Source of the DNA: Candidatus Bathyarchaeota archaeon
GTDB taxonomy: Archaea; Thermoproteota; Bathyarchaeia; Bathyarchaeales; Bathycorpusculaceae
Length of the DNA stretch: 64,000 bases
Reading direction: 5' to 3'
Assembly (NCBI GenBank): GCA_963826715.1
Contig: CAWGYA010000007.1
Location: 32,001 to 96,000, forward strand
Part shown: positions 4,668 through 43,857 of the stretch, in pieces
Layout: each line of letters starts with the position of its first letter
Position numbering within the stretch: position 1 is the first letter of the stretch
Notes under the pieces: model-generated
Told to the model about the DNA's origin: nothing
Seen by the model: only the letters and a program-made list of their open reading frames with translations
Database searches by the model: none
Position numbers and translations under genes: made by a program

Positions 4668-5309
4668 TTAGTCCTTGGGTCTTCCAGTTGATCCCGTATT
4701 TTTTTTTATCCTTTCTTCAAACGTAGGATAAGACTGGGGTAAACTTTTTGATAGTTTAATATCCAAACTACTTTTCGTTCGAAGACTACTTATTTTGACA
4801 AGTGCCGATATCATAGCCTCCCCTTTATCAATCTTAACTGAACTAAGGTCGCATTCCATCTCCTGCTGACGTTGCCATTTAGCATTAAGAAACAACAAAA
4901 CTATCATAGAACAAAAAGTGACCACTCCCCCAATCAATATACTTAATAGATAATTTCCAAAACTTGAATAAGTCAAAAAGACTGTGATTACCGCAATTAT
5001 TAAAGCAGGCATTGGCAATCGCCAAAATCTTTTTCGTCCATGTCTTTGATTTAGATGAGTAAATTCATGAGCCGTGACGGCTTCTAATTCATCTGGAAGA
5101 AGAATTTCCAAATACTTAGCATCAAAAACAACTCTGTCAAATGACGCCAAGCCACCTTGCATCAAAAATCTGGCCTTATAGTATCTATCTATTTTTTCCC
5201 TTCTCAAAATCTTGGTTACTTTTAACCTCTCAGCAAGGTCATCAAGAACCTCTGATCTAAAAGGCTCAGCCTTAAAGACCTTCGAAAATAGAGTAGCAAA
5301 GATTCCCAA
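4668..5309 (-). CDS. M48 (HtpX-like) zinc metalloprotease
   Basis: ELEAVTAHEFTH (HExxH), two TMs, EMECD, YPTFEERI. Confidence 0.8.
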   Translation of the reverse strand: MGIFATLFSKVFKAEPFRSEVLDDLAERLKVTKILRREKIDRYYKARFLMQGGLASFDRVVFDAKYLEILLPDELEAVTAHEFTHLNQRHGRKRFWRLPMPALIIAVITVFLTYSSFGNYLLSILIGGVVTFCSMIVLLFLNAKWQRQQEMECDLSSVKIDKGEAMISALVKISSLRTKSSLDIKLSKSLPQSYPTFEERIKKNTGSTGRPKD

Positions 5310-31479: not shown

Positions 31480-32255
31480 GAGTTTACATCAAACGCATCT
31501 TCTCCCCAAGGCATATTTGGCACCAAAAACCGGGTCAAAATTTTGTAAGCCAGAGTCACAAGATGACTCTGCCGGCACCAGTCCCCTATGCCCACAATGT
31601 AGCTCAAGGAGTAACTTGGAAAAAACCAATTTACCAAGCCGTAAAAAAGCTACCCTTCATACCAACTAAAAAGGAACTAAACAACTTAATCGCCGGATGC
31701 AACAGAAAAACCGCAGTATTTCTTCAGCTACTCAAAGAAACAGGCATGCGTTGCGGAGAAGCTTTCATGTTCCAATGGACCGACTTTGACTTCGAAAATA
31801 AAATCGTCAACATTACTCAAGAAAAAGGAAGCGACCCACGCCAACTCAGAATAACCCTGCGACTCATCATGATGCTAAACAACCTACTACAAAACAAACC
31901 CAAACCATTTGAATGCTCCCACAGACATTTCTCACGAACCTTTAGGAACCAACGAAAAAAAGTAGCTAGCAAACTAAAAAACGATAGAATACTGAAAATC
32001 CACTTTCACACCCTAAGACATTGTAAAGCAACCATGGAATACCCTACAACCAAAGACATCCTTCACGTCATGAAAATGTTCGGTCACAGAAACATTCAAA
32101 ACACTCTACTCTACACTCAGCTCATCAGCTTTGAAAGCGACCAATTCCACTCAGCAACCGCTAAAACAGTTCTAGACGCTCAAAAATTAATAGAAGCAGA
32201 ATTTGAATACGTCTGCGAATTTAACGAAACAAAAATCTTTAAGAAACGGAAGTAA
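31480..32255 (+). pseudogene. int: tyrosine integrase, internally deleted (catalytic domain retained)
   Basis: ETGMR, HFHTLRH, MFGHRNIQNTLLY catalytic motifs; N-terminal SPLCPQC zinc-ribbon start abuts the catalytic domain out of frame. Confidence 0.8.
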
Positions 32256-33811: not shown

Positions 33812-34755
33812 TTGGTTGAAGCATCTGATAACACCGCCAACACCCCTACCAACAGGTGTTGCAACAGTTGGCACCCCTTAAAACCCAGAGGCATAGAAGC
33901 ACTAACATATCAGATTATCGATGCTTCAGAAGTTGAGCTTAAACCATGTGAGATAGCCCGAAAGATCCATGCTCCACGCAAGCCAACACCAGGTCAGTAT
34001 TCCACCGTTCGCTTTTTCTGCTCCAAATTGCTGCAAAAAGGCCTGATCATTCAGCCTTACCCTGGAGCATACTGCAACAAAATCACCTACGGGGTGCGGT
34101 TCGTGCCGCTCTCAGTGCACAACATTAGCTTGCGCAGTTTTGTCTGTCAAGATGTTAAGCATTGGGAGATGGATGAGTTTGTTGGGGGAGTGAAGATTCA
34201 TGTTTGTTTTGGGTCGGAGCGCCGCAAAATCAGCGGTTACCTCGCCTGTGACGTTGGAGGCATGAGCCATGACGCATGTCTGTTGGCGCTTAACCGTTGG
34301 TTTGACCTAGTCAACGACCGTTTAGGCTTCCAACTTAATGATTTGGAGATCTTAACTTTTGAGTGCAACAAAGACTACCATGGCATCAGACTGGATGGTG
34401 TTCAATGCATAACCAAAGTTGACCTTTATGGTATGGTTGAGCGGGTGTATCAGAAAGAGGAAGCCCTTGTTCGCAAGGAACGCAAGGTCACAAAGCCCAT
34501 GAGCGTAAACAGGTTTGAGCAAGCCATAGCCAAAGGTTTTGCTGACACTGAAAGGTCTCAGCATGCATTTGAGAGGTCAAACGCAACACTGAAGCATTAA
34601 AGTATACCAATAGTAGGCTTTTGCAGCTTGAACGTTTAAACGAGGCTATGTTTGGAGCTCTAACTAAGCTCAACGATGTTTTGGGTAAGCTTGGCGATTT
34701 GGGTAGCCCTGTGCCTCTTGGGAAAGGTCAGGATTCTGAGGGGTATGTTCGTTGA
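33812..34755 (+). CDS. wHTH-containing viral protein (possible replication/regulatory), frame break at ~34570
   Basis: LKPCEIARKI...KLLQKGLIIQPYPGAY wHTH; coiled-coil tail EVKRNTEALKYTNSRLLQLE...GYVR lies in another frame ending 34755. Confidence 0.55.
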
Positions 34756-34855: not shown

Positions 34856-35440
34856 GTGAGCGAGAATAAGACAACGTTGAGGGTACCTGATTTTATGAAA
34901 CCCATTCTGGAAGATATTCGGTTGTTAAAGTCAGATGGCCAGAACCCTAATCGCATGACGAATAAGCAGAAAGAAGAGTTATGGAAGAGTTTGCAGGAGT
35001 TTGGCTGGACAGACCCTATTTTGGCAGATAAGGCTGGAGTTTACGCGGATGGTGAACAGAGGGTTTCTGTTTGCATAGCGCATGGGGAGTTTTGGGCGCC
35101 TGTGTATCGTATGGCTGATTTGTCGGATGTGCAGAGGCGTCGTCTTAGGCTTATTACTAATGAGTTGAAGGGGAAGCACAATCGTAAGGATGAGGAGGCG
35201 GAGTGGCGGCGGATTATCGAATCCGGTCAGCGTAATGAGTTGAAGGGTTTGCTGGATGCGGTTGGGGAGAAGATTCCTGAAGATCTAGGTGGACCTCGGG
35301 AGGGCATGAGCATGATTCCTGAGAGTTACGAGTTGATAATTTCTGGGCGAGAAAGCAAGAATTTTGATGAGTCGACGCAAAAAGCTGCTTTTGAAAAATT
35401 TACAGCTGAAGGCTGGAAAGTGAGAGTGTTGAATCTCTAA
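34856..35440 (+). CDS. ParB/Srx-like N-terminal domain protein
   Basis: NPNRM...LWKSLQEFGWTDPILAD...DGEQR...RLITNEL. Confidence 0.8.
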   Translation: MSENKTTLRVPDFMKPILEDIRLLKSDGQNPNRMTNKQKEELWKSLQEFGWTDPILADKAGVYADGEQRVSVCIAHGEFWAPVYRMADLSDVQRRRLRLITNELKGKHNRKDEEAEWRRIIESGQRNELKGLLDAVGEKIPEDLGGPREGMSMIPESYELIISGRESKNFDESTQKAAFEKFTAEGWKVRVLNL

Positions 35441-36189
35441 TGGACTTCGACTTTACCCACACCTGGACTTCCGGTGGCACTTTTCGTGAAGAAGCTGTCA
35501 AAGGCACCTATGACTTAAAAGACGTTAAGCTTGAAAAACGGATTCGAGGCAGCATCCCCATCGAGAAAATTCAATGGCAGATCGGCGTGGTTGTTGGGAG
35601 CAGTGGCAGTGGAAAAACCAGCATTGCCAAGCAACTTTGGCCTGAAGCTTACTTTGCAGATATGCGAGAACGATATAGATGTAAGTGTTTTCTGAATGAT
35701 TTCCCCGAGGGGGTATCTGTCCTCGAGATTGGCGCCGCTTTGGGCAGTAGCGGTTTTAGTGAGCCGCCTTGTTGGCTTAAGAGTTATGGGGTGTTGAGTC
35801 AGGGTCAGAAGATGAGGGTTGATATCGCTCATGCTTTGTTGTTGCCTCAGTCTTTGGTGGTTTTTGATGAGTATACGTCGACTGTGGATCGGACTGTTGC
35901 CCAGGTAGGTTCACTGGCGATTAAACGTGCCTTGAAGCATAAGGTGGGGAAGCAGTTTATCGCTGTTACTTGCCACTTTGATGTTTTAGATTGGCTTGAA
36001 CCCGACTGGATCTATGACGTAGACAACAACACCTTTGTTGATTATACCGGTACCCTCGAGGATTCTCTGACTGGTTTTGGAACTAAAGTTGTGAGTGTAA
36101 AAAAAAACGATCTCATCCGCCCCTCGAGTTATTTATCTGTAAGTGTGGTTTATCCATGTGGAAGATGTTTAGGGAGCATCATTATCTGA
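35440..36189 (+). CDS. soluble ABC-type ATPase (no transporter partner)
   Basis: GSSGSGKT Walker A, LSQGQKMR signature, VVFDEY Walker B, VTCH H-loop. Confidence 0.9.
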   Translation: MDFDFTHTWTSGGTFREEAVKGTYDLKDVKLEKRIRGSIPIEKIQWQIGVVVGSSGSGKTSIAKQLWPEAYFADMRERYRCKCFLNDFPEGVSVLEIGAALGSSGFSEPPCWLKSYGVLSQGQKMRVDIAHALLLPQSLVVFDEYTSTVDRTVAQVGSLAIKRALKHKVGKQFIAVTCHFDVLDWLEPDWIYDVDNNTFVDYTGTLEDSLTGFGTKVVSVKKNDLIRPSSYLSVSVVYPCGRCLGSIII

Positions 36190-36593
36190 ATACTGAGCGG
36201 CTTGGCGCCGGTGTACGGTGTTATATCGCTAAGCTTGGGGATAAGCCGGTTGCGTTTATCGCTGTTGCCCATGTTAGGATGAAGGCGAATTATTATCGTG
36301 TTAGCCGACTTGTTGTCTTGCCAGATTATCAAGGCATAGGCTTAGGCAAACGGCTCCTAAGCTTCATCGCTGAACTCTACACTTCCCAAATCAACCTACC
36401 CTTCTATCTAGTTACTTCAAATCCTCAGCTTGTCCGAGGCAACATGGGGAACTGGCGTGTAAAACGTGTTGGACATGGCACAGCTGGAAGCGAAGACACA
36501 AGAATCAACTCAGAACTCACCAAAAGCAACAGCAAACGACGCCTAAGCGTAACCCTACAATACATACCTAAATTGAAATCAGGAGGTTCATAG
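36099..36593 (+). CDS. GNAT acetyltransferase, probably the C-terminal part of an ABC-GNAT fusion via -1 shift at A9
   Basis: FREHHYL, RVSRLVVLPDYQGIGLG; -1 frame open from the A run (KRSHPPLELFICKCGLSMWKMF). Confidence 0.8.
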   Translation, partial: KKKRSHPPLELFICKCGLSMWKMFREHHYLNTERLGAGVRCYIAKLGDKPVAFIAVAHVRMKANYYRVSRLVVLPDYQGIGLGKRLLSFIAELYTSQINLPFYLVTSNPQLVRGNMGNWRVKRVGHGTAGSEDTRINSELTKSNSKRRLSVTLQYIPKLKSGGS

Positions 36594-36736
36594 TGCCAAA
36601 AACCTGCAAAGGCAAATGCGGCCGAAAAATATCCTACCAAAACAAAACCGGTTATTGCAAAGAATGCTTTGGCCGCTTCATTCTTAGCCCTAAGGGCGCC
36701 AATGCAAGTAGACGAGAAGTCTCAAGACAAAAATAA
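36593..36736 (+). CDS. small zinc-finger protein (47 aa, not in ORF track)
   Basis: AGGAGG SD + GTG; MPKTCKGKCGRKISYQNKTGYCKEC. Confidence 0.6.
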   Translation: MPKTCKGKCGRKISYQNKTGYCKECFGRFILSPKGANASRREVSRQK

Positions 36737-36748
36737 CTTTAATTACCC

Positions 36749-37267
36749 CTAAGTCGTCGTCCCAGAATCGGTCTCGTGCGCCCTATGGTCGTTATCTGTC
36801 ACCGTTTGGTCGAAAGCTTTTGAATAATATGCGTACGATGGAAAATTTGTAATTTGCAGTGGTGCTATACAAATATCAAAATACTCTATTTCTCTAAGAT
36901 TTTGGACAGTTTTAACGATACTATTGAAGTCCTCGATATCTGTACATATCGCTTGAACTAGCAAATCAAAGTCGCCCATTGTGTGAGTAGCAACAATGAC
37001 ATTTTGGACATGACTAATTTTTTCAAAAAATTCCTTCGCGTCGGTGTCAGGGCAAAGTTTTATGAAAAATAATACGGATTGCTTGAAACCGCATCTTTTT
37101 AGATCTATGGTTATTGAAGCTCGCTGGATTATCCCTTCTTTTTTCAGCGCATTGTATCTTCTAATAACGGTATCTGTCCCGATGCCGAGACTTTCCGCTA
37201 TATTGCTAAATGGTTGCTGCGCGTTTTTTAGTAAACAGTTTATTATTTGTCGGTCTATTTTGTCCAA
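36749..37267 (-). CDS. Lrp/AsnC family regulator
   Basis: MDKIDRQII..L..NAQQPFSNIAESLG HTH, GDFDLLV RAM domain. Confidence 0.9.
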   Translation of the reverse strand: MDKIDRQIINCLLKNAQQPFSNIAESLGIGTDTVIRRYNALKKEGIIQRASITIDLKRCGFKQSVLFFIKLCPDTDAKEFFEKISHVQNVIVATHTMGDFDLLVQAICTDIEDFNSIVKTVQNLREIEYFDICIAPLQITNFPSYAYYSKAFDQTVTDNDHRAHETDSGTTT

Positions 37268-37269
37268 AA

Positions 37270-37743
37270 CTAAGGCCTCACCAGTTTTTTAAGTGATATA
37301 TTTTCCGGTCTCGCTAGCGCCTCTTCAGGGTCGATCCAGATGCTTCCTTTTACTTGAAGAACCGCTGGGTGTCTTCTAATTTTCTCTTTTACAACTTGCA
37401 TTTCAGAAACATTTCTTAAGAAAACCCAAACAAAGATGTTGTAGGTTCCTATCGTTCCTGCAAAAAGATCTGCGCCAGGCACTTCTTTGAGGTACTCGAG
37501 GACTTCAGAAACTCGTGAAGGTATCGCTTTGATGCCCAGATTTGCAATGCAATGATAGCCAAACCGTGTTAAATCAACTTGAATTATTGATCCTGTAATT
37601 ATGCTTTTGTCTTTCAGCTTTTTAACTCGTGTACTTACGGCGTTTTTTGTGATACCTAGTTCTTTCGCATATTCCGTCAGATTTAGGCGAGCATCCATTT
37701 GTAGAGCTCTTATCAAAGCGATATCTGTTTCGTCGATCGTCAT
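37270..37743 (-). CDS. Lrp/AsnC family regulator
   Basis: IDETDIALIRALQMDAR, GTYNIFV; start moved to MTIDE. Confidence 0.9.
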   Translation of the reverse strand: MTIDETDIALIRALQMDARLNLTEYAKELGITKNAVSTRVKKLKDKSIITGSIIQVDLTRFGYHCIANLGIKAIPSRVSEVLEYLKEVPGADLFAGTIGTYNIFVWVFLRNVSEMQVVKEKIRRHPAVLQVKGSIWIDPEEALARPENISLKKLVRP

Positions 37744-37940
37744 TCTGAACCATAATGCCTTTGCTTTAGCGTCGTATAAATCTTTGCAACAGAAAATAGC
37801 ATCTATCTTAAAGAAAAACTTGATTTTGTGTGACATTTTCGCATAACAATTGTAATTATACGAAAATGTTAAATAAACTTCGCAGAAGAATAGAGCATGC
37901 TGGAATATCAATAAATTGTATTTCAAGCAAAAACTAAAAA

Positions 37941-40544
37941 ATGGTGGAAAAAATGAAAAAAATAGTTACCAAAAAAAATAGTATCTTTGCAATCACTTTG
38001 CTTGTTTTACTCAGTGCTTCAATCGCAGTCAGTGCTTTTCCGCAAGTTAACGCAGCAACAACAACCGGTTCGAAACAAACCTATGTCTTTTTAGGCCTGT
38101 CACGTAATCCAATCGGCGTCGGTCAAGCAGAAATCCTAAACGTTGGAATTTCAGACCCTATACAAACAGGATATGGCTGGAAAGACCTAAGTGTAACAAT
38201 AACAAAACCTGATGGAACAACCACTAAAATCAGTGACATCACTACGGATCCTGCAGGTAGCAGCGGTGTACTCTTTGTCCCTGATCAAGCCGGCAACTAC
38301 ACTCTGCAATCCCATTTTCCCGAACAATGGTACAACTATAGCGGGTTTTCAATATTTGGGCAACCTGAAGCAACAAACATACTCTACAAAGCAAGCGACA
38401 GTCCCGTAGTTTCTCTCGCAGTTCAAGAGGAACCAATACCCGATTATCCCATTGCAGGACTGCCGACTGAATATTGGACTAGGCCAATTAACAGTCAGCT
38501 ATCAGCTTGGTATTCAATTGGCGGCAACTGGCTTGTATCTTGGGATGCTCAACCAGCTCAAAACTTCTACGTTACTGGCAATGATCAATCGCCGAGGTCT
38601 GCGCATATTCTTTGGACAAAACAGCTATCAGCAGGTGGCCTTGTTGGAGCGCCGCTCAACTATAGTGGTTATGATGTTGGCGAAGCCTACGAATACCAGT
38701 TTGCAGGCTCCATTATAATCAACGGCATTCTATACTACAACCAATATCCCAGCAGCTATGCAAGTGCAGCGAAAACACTTTGTGCGGCAGACTTACGAAC
38801 AGGCCAATTGCTTTGGACACAACCTGGAGTTTGGATGAATCGCGGTCAACTTTTTGATTTTAGTACCGAAAATCAGCATGGAACTTTTAGCTACATATGG
38901 GCAAGGAACGGAACATTTTCGATGATGGGCGCAAGTGGACCTTGGTGTGCGTATAATGCTATGACTGGCGACTGGATGTACACAATGTCAAATGTCCCTT
39001 CAGGAACTATGATGACTGGACCTAGCGGTGAAATGCTAGTTTTAGTGGTAAATCAAGCCAATGGTTGGATGGCATTATGGAATTCAAGCGCTATACCTGC
39101 ATTACGTGCTGGTGCTTACGGAACATGGCTGTGGAATCAATGGCGACCTTGGGGGAAGACAGTCGACGCTCAAGCGGTTTGTGCCGTCACGCCTGAAACA
39201 CCAATTGGAATTTCGGGTTATTCGTGGAACGTGACAATTCCAAAAGGGTTGCCTGGCAGTGTAGTTACCGCCTTCCCTGATGACTTAGTTTATGGATACT
39301 CCCGTGGTGCATCTGTGATTAACCAGGTAACGCTGCAAACTACTCCTACTGATCAATTCTATGCTTGGGCTGTAAGCTTAAACCCGCAAACACGAGGTCA
39401 ACTTCTTTGGAATAAAACTGAACCATTGCCGGCTGGAAACATTACCATCACTGCTCAGTTCGGGCCCCAAGATGCTCAATCTAGGACGTTTTGTGTCTTC
39501 CTAAAAGAGACAAGACAATGGGTTGGTTATAGTCTGGACACAGGAAATGAACTCTGGACAACCGAATCTCAGTATTACATGGATCAATACACTACTATCG
39601 GTGCAGTCTGGGGCATTAACAGTGCGATTGCTTATGGTCGTCTGTATGCGATCCACTACGGCGGTATCTTGTATTGTTATGACATTACTACAGGCAAAAC
39701 GCTTTGGACTTATGCTAACGCAGATCCATATGGCACAGAATTAAGAAATACAAACTTCCCTTCTGATATCTGCATGATAACTAACGGAATGATCGTTATT
39801 ACTCCGTCTGAATTCAATCCACTAATTCCAAGACCTCAGGGTGCATACACAGTTTGCTTAAACGCTACAACTGGACAAGTCATCTGGAAACTTAATCTGG
39901 CAGGACCCGGAGGCTCCGGAAAACCAATTATCGGCGACAATATCATCGCGGCATTCAACGAGTACGACAACCAAATCTATTCAATAGGTAAAGGACCAAC
40001 AGCTGTCAGCGTAACAGCCCCCAGCGACAGTGTCACTTTAGGAAATTCTGTAATAATTCGCGGATCTGTTACTGACATCTCGGCTGGCACTACTCAAAGC
40101 AACATTGCTCCTCGTTTTCCAAATGGTGTTCCCGCAGTCTCTGATGACAGCATGATTGAATGGATGCAATACGTCTACATGCAGCTGCCGCGCCCAACCA
40201 ACACTACCGGCGTACCAGTGACACTAAGCGTAGTCGATGCTAACGGAAACTACCGCCAAATCGGCACAACTACAACGAGTGACGGTTTCTTCACGTTTAA
40301 CTGGAAACCCGACATTGATGGACAATACACAGTGTACGCTTCTTTTGCAGGCAGTGAATCGTATTTCCCATCACAAGGAATGACCTCTTTTGCCGTTGAC
40401 CAAGCCTCATCAACACCGCAACCACCGCAACCGCCAATGCAAGGTATTGCTGACCAATACTTCATCCCGGCAATTGTAGGTCTCTTTATCTTCATTGCCA
40501 TCATCGGCGTTACAGTAATCTTAGTCCAAAGGAAACGGCCATAA
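37941..40544 (+). CDS. large secreted PQQ-like beta-propeller surface protein with Ig-like domains and C-terminal TM
   Basis: Signal peptide; repeats DLRTGQLLW, LDTGNELW, ITTGKTLW, ATTGQVIW; TM + QRKRP. Confidence 0.85.
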   Translation: MVEKMKKIVTKKNSIFAITLLVLLSASIAVSAFPQVNAATTTGSKQTYVFLGLSRNPIGVGQAEILNVGISDPIQTGYGWKDLSVTITKPDGTTTKISDITTDPAGSSGVLFVPDQAGNYTLQSHFPEQWYNYSGFSIFGQPEATNILYKASDSPVVSLAVQEEPIPDYPIAGLPTEYWTRPINSQLSAWYSIGGNWLVSWDAQPAQNFYVTGNDQSPRSAHILWTKQLSAGGLVGAPLNYSGYDVGEAYEYQFAGSIIINGILYYNQYPSSYASAAKTLCAADLRTGQLLWTQPGVWMNRGQLFDFSTENQHGTFSYIWARNGTFSMMGASGPWCAYNAMTGDWMYTMSNVPSGTMMTGPSGEMLVLVVNQANGWMALWNSSAIPALRAGAYGTWLWNQWRPWGKTVDAQAVCAVTPETPIGISGYSWNVTIPKGLPGSVVTAFPDDLVYGYSRGASVINQVTLQTTPTDQFYAWAVSLNPQTRGQLLWNKTEPLPAGNITITAQFGPQDAQSRTFCVFLKETRQWVGYSLDTGNELWTTESQYYMDQYTTIGAVWGINSAIAYGRLYAIHYGGILYCYDITTGKTLWTYANADPYGTELRNTNFPSDICMITNGMIVITPSEFNPLIPRPQGAYTVCLNATTGQVIWKLNLAGPGGSGKPIIGDNIIAAFNEYDNQIYSIGKGPTAVSVTAPSDSVTLGNSVIIRGSVTDISAGTTQSNIAPRFPNGVPAVSDDSMIEWMQYVYMQLPRPTNTTGVPVTLSVVDANGNYRQIGTTTTSDGFFTFNWKPDIDGQYTVYASFAGSESYFPSQGMTSFAVDQASSTPQPPQPPMQGIADQYFIPAIVGLFIFIAIIGVTVILVQRKRP

Positions 40545-41930: not shown

Positions 41931-42509
41931 TTGTCGATGTCGATGGAAGAGGCTTTGGGCATTAAGAAACCTGAGCCGAAAGCGCCGACTGTAGAGGATG
42001 CGTTGGAGATTGAATATTCGCCTGCTGAACTGAAGAAAATCCAGCGAGATAAGATTATTCTTGAGGAGACAGCGAATAAGGGGGCGACAATTCCTGAAAT
42101 TTACGAGATTTTACGAGAAAAGGGGCATCCTGCATGCCAAAAAACTATCTGGACAGTTCTGCACAGTGACCGCGCCACTAAGCTTAGGGAAGAGATGGAG
42201 CGTGCGCAGTGTCGGGATATTGCGCTACTGCGTGCTTATGCTTTGCAGGATAGGGATTTGAAGGCGTTGGCTGCGGCGATTGCAGCGCGTGGGCAGATGA
42301 TTAAGAATTTGACGCCTAACAGTCAGCCGAATGTGAATGTGGAAGTGAATGTCGCTAACAAAACCGAACACGTGCTCCTCGCAGAATACGCCGGTGTCAT
42401 ATCGGAAGCTGCAACTCTTAACAGCAATCTTTCAAGAGTACGTGTTGGAGAATCCTTGGATTCCGAATCGTCCTCATCCAATAACGGGAAAGAGCGGTCC
42501 GACGCCTAA
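41931..42509 (+). CDS. terS: putative terminase small subunit
   Basis: HTH-like N-terminus plus helical hairpin, immediately upstream of and overlapping terL. Confidence 0.55.
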   Translation: MSMSMEEALGIKKPEPKAPTVEDALEIEYSPAELKKIQRDKIILEETANKGATIPEIYEILREKGHPACQKTIWTVLHSDRATKLREEMERAQCRDIALLRAYALQDRDLKALAAAIAARGQMIKNLTPNSQPNVNVEVNVANKTEHVLLAEYAGVISEAATLNSNLSRVRVGESLDSESSSSNNGKERSDA

Positions 42510-43857
42510 GCAGGCAAAGTTTCTTTTGTTGCTTGATTATTTGGAGGCTTTGTTTGGTGGCGCTGCAGGAGGCGGAAAGTCGGATGCTTTGCTTATGGCT
42601 GCTGCGATGTTTCTGGATGTTCCAGGGTATGCCGCGATTATTCTTCGGCGTAGCTTCACTGACCTGAATAAGCCTGGCGCTTTAATCTCGAGGAGTTTTG
42701 AGTGGTGGGGTAAGACTGCTGCTCGTTGGGATGGGATTAATCATACATGGCATTTTCCTTCGGGTGCATCGTTGACTTTTGGTTTTTTGGAAAATGATCG
42801 GGATGTTTTTCATCATCAGAGTGCAGAGTACCAGTTTGAGGGTTGGGATGAGATCACCCAGTTTACCGAGTATTCTTATCGTTACATGATAAGTCGTATG
42901 CGTCGGCTTAAACGGTTTGAGTGGCTTCCTCTGCGTGTTCGTGCTGCATCCAATCCGCCTCATAAGATTGGGAGCGTTGTGCAGGGGTATTGGGTTAAGG
43001 GTTATTTTTTGCCCTGGTTTGTTTGCCATCGTTGCGATTTTAAAATGCAGACTGAAAACTTAGATCTCTCAATTTGCCCTGAATGTAATAGTTTTGATAG
43101 TCATGTTGAGTTTAATTGTGATGAGGAAAGCGGTGAGCCAAGGATCTTTATTCCCTCAACTTTGGATGACAACATTTTCCTCGATAAGACAAGTTACATT
43201 AAAAGTCTAAATCGGCTGGATCCGATTACCCGTGAGCAGCTGCGTCGGGGTAGCTGGAAAGTCAGTTCAAGCGGGATGCTTAAGCGGGAGTGGTTTGTTA
43301 ACGGCAAAGAGCGCCTACTTATTGATGCTTCTGCTGTGCCTGAGAAGGCTAGGCGGGTGCGTGTTTGGGATTTGGCTTGTACTGAAGAGGGCGAGGCTCC
43401 TGATCCTGACTATACAAGCGCTCTGAGAGCTGCTATGGTTGAGGGGCACATGTACATTGAGGATGTTAGGCGTTTTCGTGGCAGTCCTTCAAGGATTCAG
43501 AGCGAGATGGCGGCTTGTGCAGAATTGGATGGTCAAACAATTCCTATTCACATCGAGCAAGAAAAGGGCTCAGCTGGTAAAAACTTGATTGATCTCATTA
43601 GCCGCACTACCTTGTTGGGGTATGTGGTTGTTAGTGAGTCGCCGACTGGTGAGAAAGCTGTCAGGGCTACTCCGTTGGCGAATGCTGCTGAGCGTGGGCA
43701 CGTGCATTTGGTGCGTGGCCAGTGGAACAGTGCTTTCCTAGACGAGGCGGAGTTTTTTCCCTCGGGCAAACATAAGGACCAGATCGATACGGCTGCTTAT
43801 GCCTACAACATCTTAGCAATGGTTAAGAAAAGACCCAAGGCGGCAAATGCATCATGA
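42349..43857 (+). CDS. terL: terminase large subunit
   Basis: PTPKQ, GGAAGGGKS Walker A, GWDEITQF Walker B, ASNP, VWDLA nuclease, FPSGKHKDQID. Confidence 0.95.
   Translation: MSLTKPNTCSSQNTPVSYRKLQLLTAIFQEYVLENPWIPNRPHPITGKSGPTPKQAKFLLLLDYLEALFGGAAGGGKSDALLMAAAMFLDVPGYAAIILRRSFTDLNKPGALISRSFEWWGKTAARWDGINHTWHFPSGASLTFGFLENDRDVFHHQSAEYQFEGWDEITQFTEYSYRYMISRMRRLKRFEWLPLRVRAASNPPHKIGSVVQGYWVKGYFLPWFVCHRCDFKMQTENLDLSICPECNSFDSHVEFNCDEESGEPRIFIPSTLDDNIFLDKTSYIKSLNRLDPITREQLRRGSWKVSSSGMLKREWFVNGKERLLIDASAVPEKARRVRVWDLACTEEGEAPDPDYTSALRAAMVEGHMYIEDVRRFRGSPSRIQSEMAACAELDGQTIPIHIEQEKGSAGKNLIDLISRTTLLGYVVVSESPTGEKAVRATPLANAAERGHVHLVRGQWNSAFLDEAEFFPSGKHKDQIDTAAYAYNILAMVKKRPKAANAS

Follow-up and report, generated by a model that had tools for sequence, protein, structure and literature searches.

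THE LOCUS

We describe a ParB/ATPase/GNAT module in a 64 000-nucleotide stretch of DNA from a Candidatus Bathyarchaeota archaeon (GenBank assembly GCA_963826715.1, contig CAWGYA010000007.1, forward-strand positions 32 001 to 96 000), hereafter the window, in which a gene for an ABC-type ATPase and a reading frame for a GNAT acyltransferase domain lie one base apart in frame and meet at a run of nine adenines (A9). Coordinates are window positions, and all parts of the module lie on the plus strand. The upstream gene (34856–35440) encodes a 194-aa ParB/Srx-like N-terminal-domain protein that matches the ParB-like PHROG family phrog_620 (5.5e-16) and also phrog_498 (1.4e-16), the ParB-like N-terminus of DNA methyltransferases. 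Its stop codon overlaps, at 35440, the start of the ATPase gene (35440–36189; Pfam ABC_tran, 1.1e-07), which by standard decoding yields 249 aa. Twenty-two ATPase homologues keep the Walker A G-x-G-K, the signature S-x-G, the Walker B D-E and the H-loop H without exception. The last 26 codons of the ATPase frame, those after the A run, are an out-of-frame tail.

The slip site is the A9 at 36099–36107, read in the 0 frame as GTA AAA AAA AAC (V K K N). Within the overlap of the two frames it holds the 0-frame heptamers A_AAA_AAA and A_AAA_AAC, of the X_XXY_YYZ type. The −1 frame is closed just 5′ of the run by a TAA (36084–36086) and is then open from 36087 to 36593, with its stop codon at 36591–36593; its reading after the TAA is C K K K R S H P P L E L F I C K C G L S M W K M F R E H H Y L, and farther on Y-Q-G-I-G-L-G presents an intact GNAT Q/R-x-x-G-x-G/A motif. 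Pfam matched this frame with generic GNAT models only (Acetyltransf_1, 7 and 10; 3.5e-09 for Acetyltransf_1). Entry into the −1 frame at the run would give a predicted fusion of ~384 aa. The 0 frame ends at a TGA (36187–36189) that arises from the codons for Leu and Asn in the H-H-Y-L-N motif of the GNAT frame. Overlapping the GNAT stop is the start of a 47-aa Cys-rich, zinc-ribbon-like open reading frame (ORF; 36593–36736), which has no family match in Pfam or PHROG and has a homologue downstream of the module in 12 of the 81 loci compared below.

The original prediction for this DNA had named the A9, the TAA upstream of it, the passage of the −1 frame into the GNAT domain and the off-frame character of the 0-frame tail, and each of these is borne out by the sequence. 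The run alone is unremarkable, the window having four A9/T9 runs where shuffled sequences lead one to expect 9.8; the signal lies in the position of this one at the frame junction and in its conservation among relatives.

ONE COLLINEAR FAMILY

The ATPase and the −1 frame are two halves of one collinear family, phrog_11143. Along its 357-position profile the ATPase ORF matches positions 14–194 (1.2e-47) and the −1 frame positions 196–350 (1e-31); the JGI name of the family is 'ABC-type ATPase with predicted acetyltransferase domain'. When a library of 1.84 billion protein representatives was searched and the best 150 matches were inspected, at least 87 proved to be single uninterrupted ATPase-GNAT proteins of ~350–390 aa. 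Some uninterrupted homologues carry an extra ParB-like N-terminus, making triple fusions of 570–620 aa.

An AlphaFold model of one uninterrupted homologue, P0122 (34-row alignment; predicted local distance difference test score, pLDDT, 90.4), places the end of the last ATPase strands at residue 199, followed by a short linker with a near-invariant Arg, R204, by the first GNAT strand at 210–213 and by a helix at 219–227 that bears the invariant W…F…H-Y motif. The window encodes the equivalents of R204 and of the first GNAT strand in the −1 frame immediately after the run, upstream of the first candidate internal start, ATG 36156. Among the best 120 of 1436 protein relatives, lengths span 178–260 aa and no fusion occurs; the out-of-frame tails of such short proteins align and all end at the same place.

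CONSERVATION OF THE FRAME BREAK

The comparison took in 81 loci: the window itself and, from 245 genome matches, the 80 best, which with few exceptions are titled Bathyarchaeia or Bathyarchaeota. A strict rule asked that the −1 ORF be 100 codons or longer and contain the GNAT glycine motif, and that a run of at least A7 stand at the start of the overlap; 75 loci passed: 53 with A7 in phase 2, 15 with A9 in phase 2 (the window among them) and seven with A9 in phase 0. One more locus, L052, misses only the motif pattern, so that 76 of the 81 have the −1 layout with an A7 or A9 run, and the frame break at the A run, which the original prediction had proposed to look for in homologues, is conserved. 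Phase 2 puts the run of all 53 canonical A7 loci in the form A_AAA_AAA. Damage accounts for the other five loci. The ATPase is cut short in L009 and L033, and the −1 ORF in L059 and L065 is short; in L076 a base has been added after the run, which alone puts the junction in frame, and the frame changes a second time. The −1 state persists down to ~47% ATPase identity, and the GNAT frame is open over 156–187 codons in relatives.

Five further copies with the same junction occur in the window's own 2.64-Mb genome (one A9 in phase 2, three A7 and one A9 in phase 0); for a sixth further match there, L169, no motif line was obtained. Counted as module copies, loci L165–L171 of this genome (G000) amount to at least six further ones, one of them split into two matches, which suggests many related proviruses or elements within a single genome. 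Several other metagenome-assembled genomes have three to six module loci each. Three loci, L035, L036 and L057, lie on contigs binned as Anaerolineaceae or Phycisphaerales and nest among the Bathyarchaeia modules on the tree; these are likely mis-binned contigs or cases of transfer.

SELECTION ON THE JUNCTION

Codon choice was examined in the 70 loci whose −1 ORF has at least 150 codons. Third-position entropy in the A7 class (n = 50) amounts to 1.34 bits for the ATPase frame ahead of the run and to 1.45 bits for the −1 frame past the 0-frame stop; as it is high in the 0 frame on one side and in the −1 frame on the other, both halves are coding. In the overlap, entropy is suppressed at all three codon positions (0.28/0.55/0.54 in the A7 class), and the A9 classes are alike. 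The run itself is all-A in 70 of 70 loci, where Lys codons elsewhere in these genes number 855 AAA and 738 AAG (46% AAG).

The 0-frame stop also appears to be maintained by selection, judging from three features of the GNAT codons that make it. The Leu codon of the H-Y-L motif is CTA in 42 loci, CTG in 15, TTG in 11, TTA in two and CTY in none of the 70, against 40% CTY among Leu codons elsewhere in the same genes; the codon that follows always begins with A; and where that codon is for Ser it is always AGY.

HAIRPIN AND HAIRPIN-FREE RUNS

Loci of the A7 class have an 8-bp GC stem that starts 7 nt past the heptamer A_AAA_AAA and whose bases are invariant in 46 of 46 sequences, four-fold degenerate positions included. 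Folded singly, members of the class reach −20 to −24 kcal/mol (z −3.4 and −3.8; none of 200 shuffles as stable), and the pairing register of the stem is 86% paired versus 34–54% in slid registers. With this invariant hairpin 7 nt downstream, inside the 5–9 nt spacing expected of a frameshift stimulator, the A7 loci look like classical ribosomal −1 frameshift sites, and these 53 loci fit less well the criterion for transcriptional slippage, a homopolymer of at least about nine A or T at the junction whatever its phase.

The window's A9 has the length for such slippage, and A9 runs occur in two phases (15 and seven loci). Its fold is no better than that of shuffles (z +0.7 and +1.44). The A9 class as a whole, with the window in it, has no consensus downstream structure, and so the stimulator of a classical ribosomal frameshift is missing in the window; for the same reason transcriptional slippage comes into play, and ribosomal frameshifting and slippage of RNA polymerase appear equally likely at the window's run.

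VIRUS CONTIGS AND BACTERIAL PHAGES

Turning to viral contigs, we classified the junction in the 80 best of 441 confirmed IMG/VR matches, a sample biased to the Bathyarchaeia branch because it was chosen by likeness to the Bathyarchaeia alignment. A run of at least A7 stands at the junction in 76 of the 80, as an in-frame A10 in 46, a −1 A9 in 22, a −1 A10 in three, a −1 A7 in three and a +1 A11 in two; the other four defied classification. Each of the 46 in-frame A10 contigs would, on losing one A, run to the same stop 25 codons on and, on gaining one, meet a stop at once. These 46, which fall among L103–L162, keep the A10 strictly and read G-Q-K-K-N-R-P there, and small sister groups show an A9 or A10 in the −1 state or an A11. 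A FastTree phylogeny of 153 ATPase domains, a quick method that here left many weak branches, has an 86-row part that includes the window and is −1 throughout except for L076, and calls for at least six changes between the in-frame and −1 states overall. From these run states and frame changes, the run seems to be the conserved element, and the frame encoded after it to be specific to the lineage.

The module also occurs in six phage records: Streptococcus phages 315.4, Javan141, Javan420 and MismyG, Lactococcus phage P335 and Oenococcus phage Vinitor-27 (L081, L082, L083, L174, L175 and L176). In all six the GNAT part of the ParB/ATPase/GNAT module is in the −1 frame, with an overlap of ~100 nt; an A run is absent throughout, as is any start codon ahead of the H-Y-L motif. 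Their junctions carry instead a conserved GGTTTTTC…CCCCC stretch (T5/C5), or A_AAG_GGC in Oenococcus. In one of these records the −1 ORF is cut short at 69 codons. The annotators of these phages label the GNAT part as a truncated 'hypothetical protein', and these Streptococcus, Lactococcus and Oenococcus junctions may hold a frameshift so far unreported in such familiar phages.

PROVIRUS CONTEXT

The module sits in an integrated Bathyarchaeia tailed provirus. Cellular metabolism genes occupy the window upstream of ~31 kb, and virus genes run onward from a tyrosine integrase (31563–32255, plus strand; Pfam Phage_integrase 3.7e-20; phrog_1/216 integrase) that is the probable left end of the provirus. 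The large terminase subunit lies farther along the same strand (42349–43854; phrog_979, 2.2e-92; Pfam Terminase_6C), and neck and tail genes extend to ~58 kb. The viral origin that had been proposed for the module is upheld by these genes around it. A tRNA scan of the window found none, and no attachment-site tRNA was identified.

A ParB-like homologue stands directly upstream of the ATPase in 79 of the 81 loci. The terminase genes follow directly after the module in Streptococcus phage 315.4 and Lactococcus phage P335. In the window the interval between module and packaging genes (36749–40544) contains two minus-strand regulators of the Lrp/AsnC type and an 867-aa surface protein with PQQ/beta-propeller repeats, relatives of which are found upstream of the module in five other loci. 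On the other side of the module, ORFs 33812–34600 and 34621–34755 correspond to one ~317-aa ORF in the close relatives L015, L017, L020, L025, L029 and L033; the window is without 10 nt near 34571, and this breaks the frame of 33812–34755.

The C-terminal ~95 residues of the window GNAT (36300–36590) are almost identical to those of L017, L020, L025, L029 and L067, loci of the A7 class whose ATPase is only ~49% identical to the window's; from this comparison, intragenic recombination appears to have made ATPase/GNAT mosaics. Far from the provirus, a minus-strand A9 run (4699–4707) lies about ten codons before the end of an M48 peptidase-like ORF (4671–5309).

EXPLANATION OF THE SPLIT

In our judgement the two halves most probably form a single functional ATPase/GNAT gene within a conserved ParB module, deliberately kept one base out of frame and joined by a slip. 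Sequence comparison gives strong support to the programmed frameshift or slippage of the original prediction: the −1 layout is retained by 76 of 81 loci, and the run, the −1 reading and the 0-frame stop are all under selection. Standard decoding would give the 249-aa ATPase, ending 26 codons past the A9; a one-base slip on the run, whether through a backward step of the ribosome on A_AAA_AAA or A_AAA_AAC or through an extra A put in by RNA polymerase, would give the ATPase-GNAT acyltransferase fusion. We infer that both proteins are made, and as a slip would decide which of them results, the run would set the ratio of ATPase-only to ATPase-GNAT subunits.

Several points weigh against this explanation. 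The loci are related and are not independent events, so that counts of loci overstate the number of events. The hairpin of the A7 class shows no covariation beyond shuffles (162 of 500 reach its score), and the invariance of its stem could come instead from the constraint of two reading frames; the A9 class has no such structure to offer at all. An ATG at 36156 could start a GNAT protein that lacks its first strand. One of the read contigs considered below is an A short of nine, and the 10-nt deletion in 33812–34755 means that the window's copy of the provirus may be partly decayed, perhaps inactive.

The ATG is the basis of the most serious competitor, two separate overlapping genes in which the GNAT protein is made from its own internal start, perhaps by translational coupling, and the run merely encodes C-terminal lysines of the ATPase. 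Overlapping coupled genes are common, the annotators of related phages call two ORFs, and the first start codon of the −1 ORF, an ATG or TTG, comes 15–18 codons past the run in 52 of the 70 loci of the codon tests. It is elsewhere in the other 18, though, and absent for at least 43 codons in five, so its place is not fixed, and the phage relatives from Streptococcus, Lactococcus and Oenococcus lack any start codon ahead of the H-Y-L motif. An internally started protein would lose the near-invariant Arg together with the first GNAT strand, and separate genes would leave unexplained why the run is all-A in every one of 70 loci when other Lys codons are so often AAG. We therefore regard this arrangement as improbable. 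Less probable still is phase variation at the DNA level, with the run toggling the fusion on (A10) and off (A9) within a population as in the contingency loci of modification enzymes. Run length does vary among related virus lineages (A9, A10 and A11), the tree does need its six or more changes between in-frame and −1 states, and the low-depth X3 contig has A8; yet no locus titled Bathyarchaeia has a simple in-frame run (0 of 76 canonical loci), L076 owes its frame to a base added after the run and has a second break, the −1 state outlasts divergence to ~47% ATPase identity, and A7 is short for frequent replication slippage.

That the split is an artefact or a sign of decay, either a miscalled homopolymer whose true length is A10 or an inactivating frameshift in a dying provirus, is the least credible of the competing explanations and in our view highly improbable. 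Homopolymers are error-prone, the window has its 10-nt deletion, and L009, L033, L059, L065 and L076 are damaged. The same state recurs, however, across many assemblies of different titles, in 76 of 81 loci altogether, and in the five same-genome copies, and 53 of the loci have an easily sequenced A7; the assembly error allowed for in the original prediction is on these grounds rejected for this lineage. Decay is countered by a GNAT frame that stays open for 156–187 codons with variability of the coding type, and by the selection on the 0-frame stop. Read data, in the form of low-depth Logan contigs of runs X1, X2, X3 and X20, are weak either way: an X1 contig (depth 3.6, from what may be the source sample) matches 36076–36347 without a gap and so has A9, an X3 contig from the same study (depth 2.6) is one A short and has A8, and A10 is seen in none. 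Contigs of the four runs leave 35836–36055 uncovered, and the contigs of X20, an RNA library, cover only 36454–36716, outside the run, where they are a relative's at 90–95% likeness.

Returning to a single gene joined by a slip, we advance more tentatively, as something possible that we would not call probable, a broader reading in which a family-wide, selected slippery joint fixes the two-subunit ratio of a DNA-acylating machine in archaeal and bacterial viruses alike. At least three solutions would then exist: an A7 with a hairpin for the ribosome; A9, A10 or A11 runs, in frame or out of it, with conserved hidden stops for RNA polymerase; and the run-free T5/C5 or A_AAG_GGC junctions.

PREDICTED FUNCTION

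The purpose would be an ATP-driven, ParB-guided enzyme that acylates a base of the viral DNA before packaging. A comparative paper of 2021 (PMC7824862, section 3.4.7) relates an older prediction that a GNAT protein and an ABC ATPase together place an acyl modification, as yet uncharacterised, on a DNA base. The base modification suggested in the original prediction agrees with this. The ParB-like protein resembles the ParB-like N-terminus of phage DNA methyltransferases in both PHROG and PADLOC, PADLOC giving weak matches to mad3 and to the ParB-like N-terminus of type II methyltransferases. Other searches were unspecific: NCBIfam returned only generic ABC transporter models far below their cut-offs; comparison with solved structures, by sequence and with Foldseek on the P0122 model, found generic ABC nucleotide-binding domains only and no clue to the GNAT substrate; and Pfam, with its generic models, had no Mom-specific match for the window GNAT. 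We give DNA-base acylation something close to an even chance, or slightly less, the alternatives being protein, RNA or small-molecule targets.

COMPARISON WITH KNOWN SYSTEMS

Genes that make two products from a poly-A run are well known. The dnaX gene of Thermus thermophilus makes tau and gamma by slippage on an A run, and it too has a long A run in an ATPase gene and yields a full-length form and one without a C-terminal domain. Here it is standard decoding that would give the short form and the long one that would need a slip, and the gene belongs to an unrelated family, in an archaeal virus, and is known from sequence.

The fucA1 gene of Sulfolobus solfataricus, like the present gene, has an archaeal setting and two ORFs with a −1 overlap. 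PMC8211752 gives it a heptamer rich in A, a putative stem-loop and full-length homologues that differ by one A. It is interrupted in two strains only (PMC8211752), whereas here the −1 state holds in 76 of 81 loci across deep divergence and the window's A9 class is without a stem-loop. The same source, a 2021 review, gives as documented archaeal −1 recoding fucA1, a few halovirus tail genes and a suggested magnesium chelatase case.

Magnesium chelatase genes undergo −1 frameshifting on poly-A in a cluster of 23 genes from six genera, Methanocaldococcus and Methanococcus among them, with an efficiency that increases with run length (PMC3711429). There, as here, a conserved run of the A_AAA_AAA type joins two domains, and fused and split forms coexist; the protein family is another one, and ABC-ATPase/GNAT genes are absent from the main text of that paper, where the word 'acetyltransferase' appears 0 times.

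As for the domains, the predicted GNAT and ABC ATPase acylation system of PMC7824862 has the same phage domain pair and, in several phages, a ParB-like partner by the packaging genes, and its section 3.4.7 says nothing of a broken frame or a slip site. The Mom protein of phage Mu, like the window's domain, is a viral enzyme of GNAT fold; it acylates a base in double-stranded DNA using Gly-tRNA (PMC13219725), an activity that for the window is predicted only. Mom differs in acting alone, with no ParB and with no ATPase mentioned in the text of PMC13219725. Our literature searches, which took in the main text of PMC3711429, found no paper on a frame break in this family.

IMPLICATIONS

The module adds to the archaeal cases a −1 junction kept across many loci and in several sequence classes, and its natural variants (A7 with hairpin, A9 and in-frame A10) make the mechanism directly testable. 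Gene callers annotate the two halves separately, one as an 'ABC transporter' and the other as a truncated 'hypothetical protein', and so mask a predicted DNA-modification enzyme in many viruses; the full-length, slipped form is the one that has to be expressed in any assay of the predicted acylation. Should the family-wide joint prove true, no recoding signal seen so far in archaeal viruses would be as widespread, and ribosomal and transcriptional slippage would interchange at a single homologous site.

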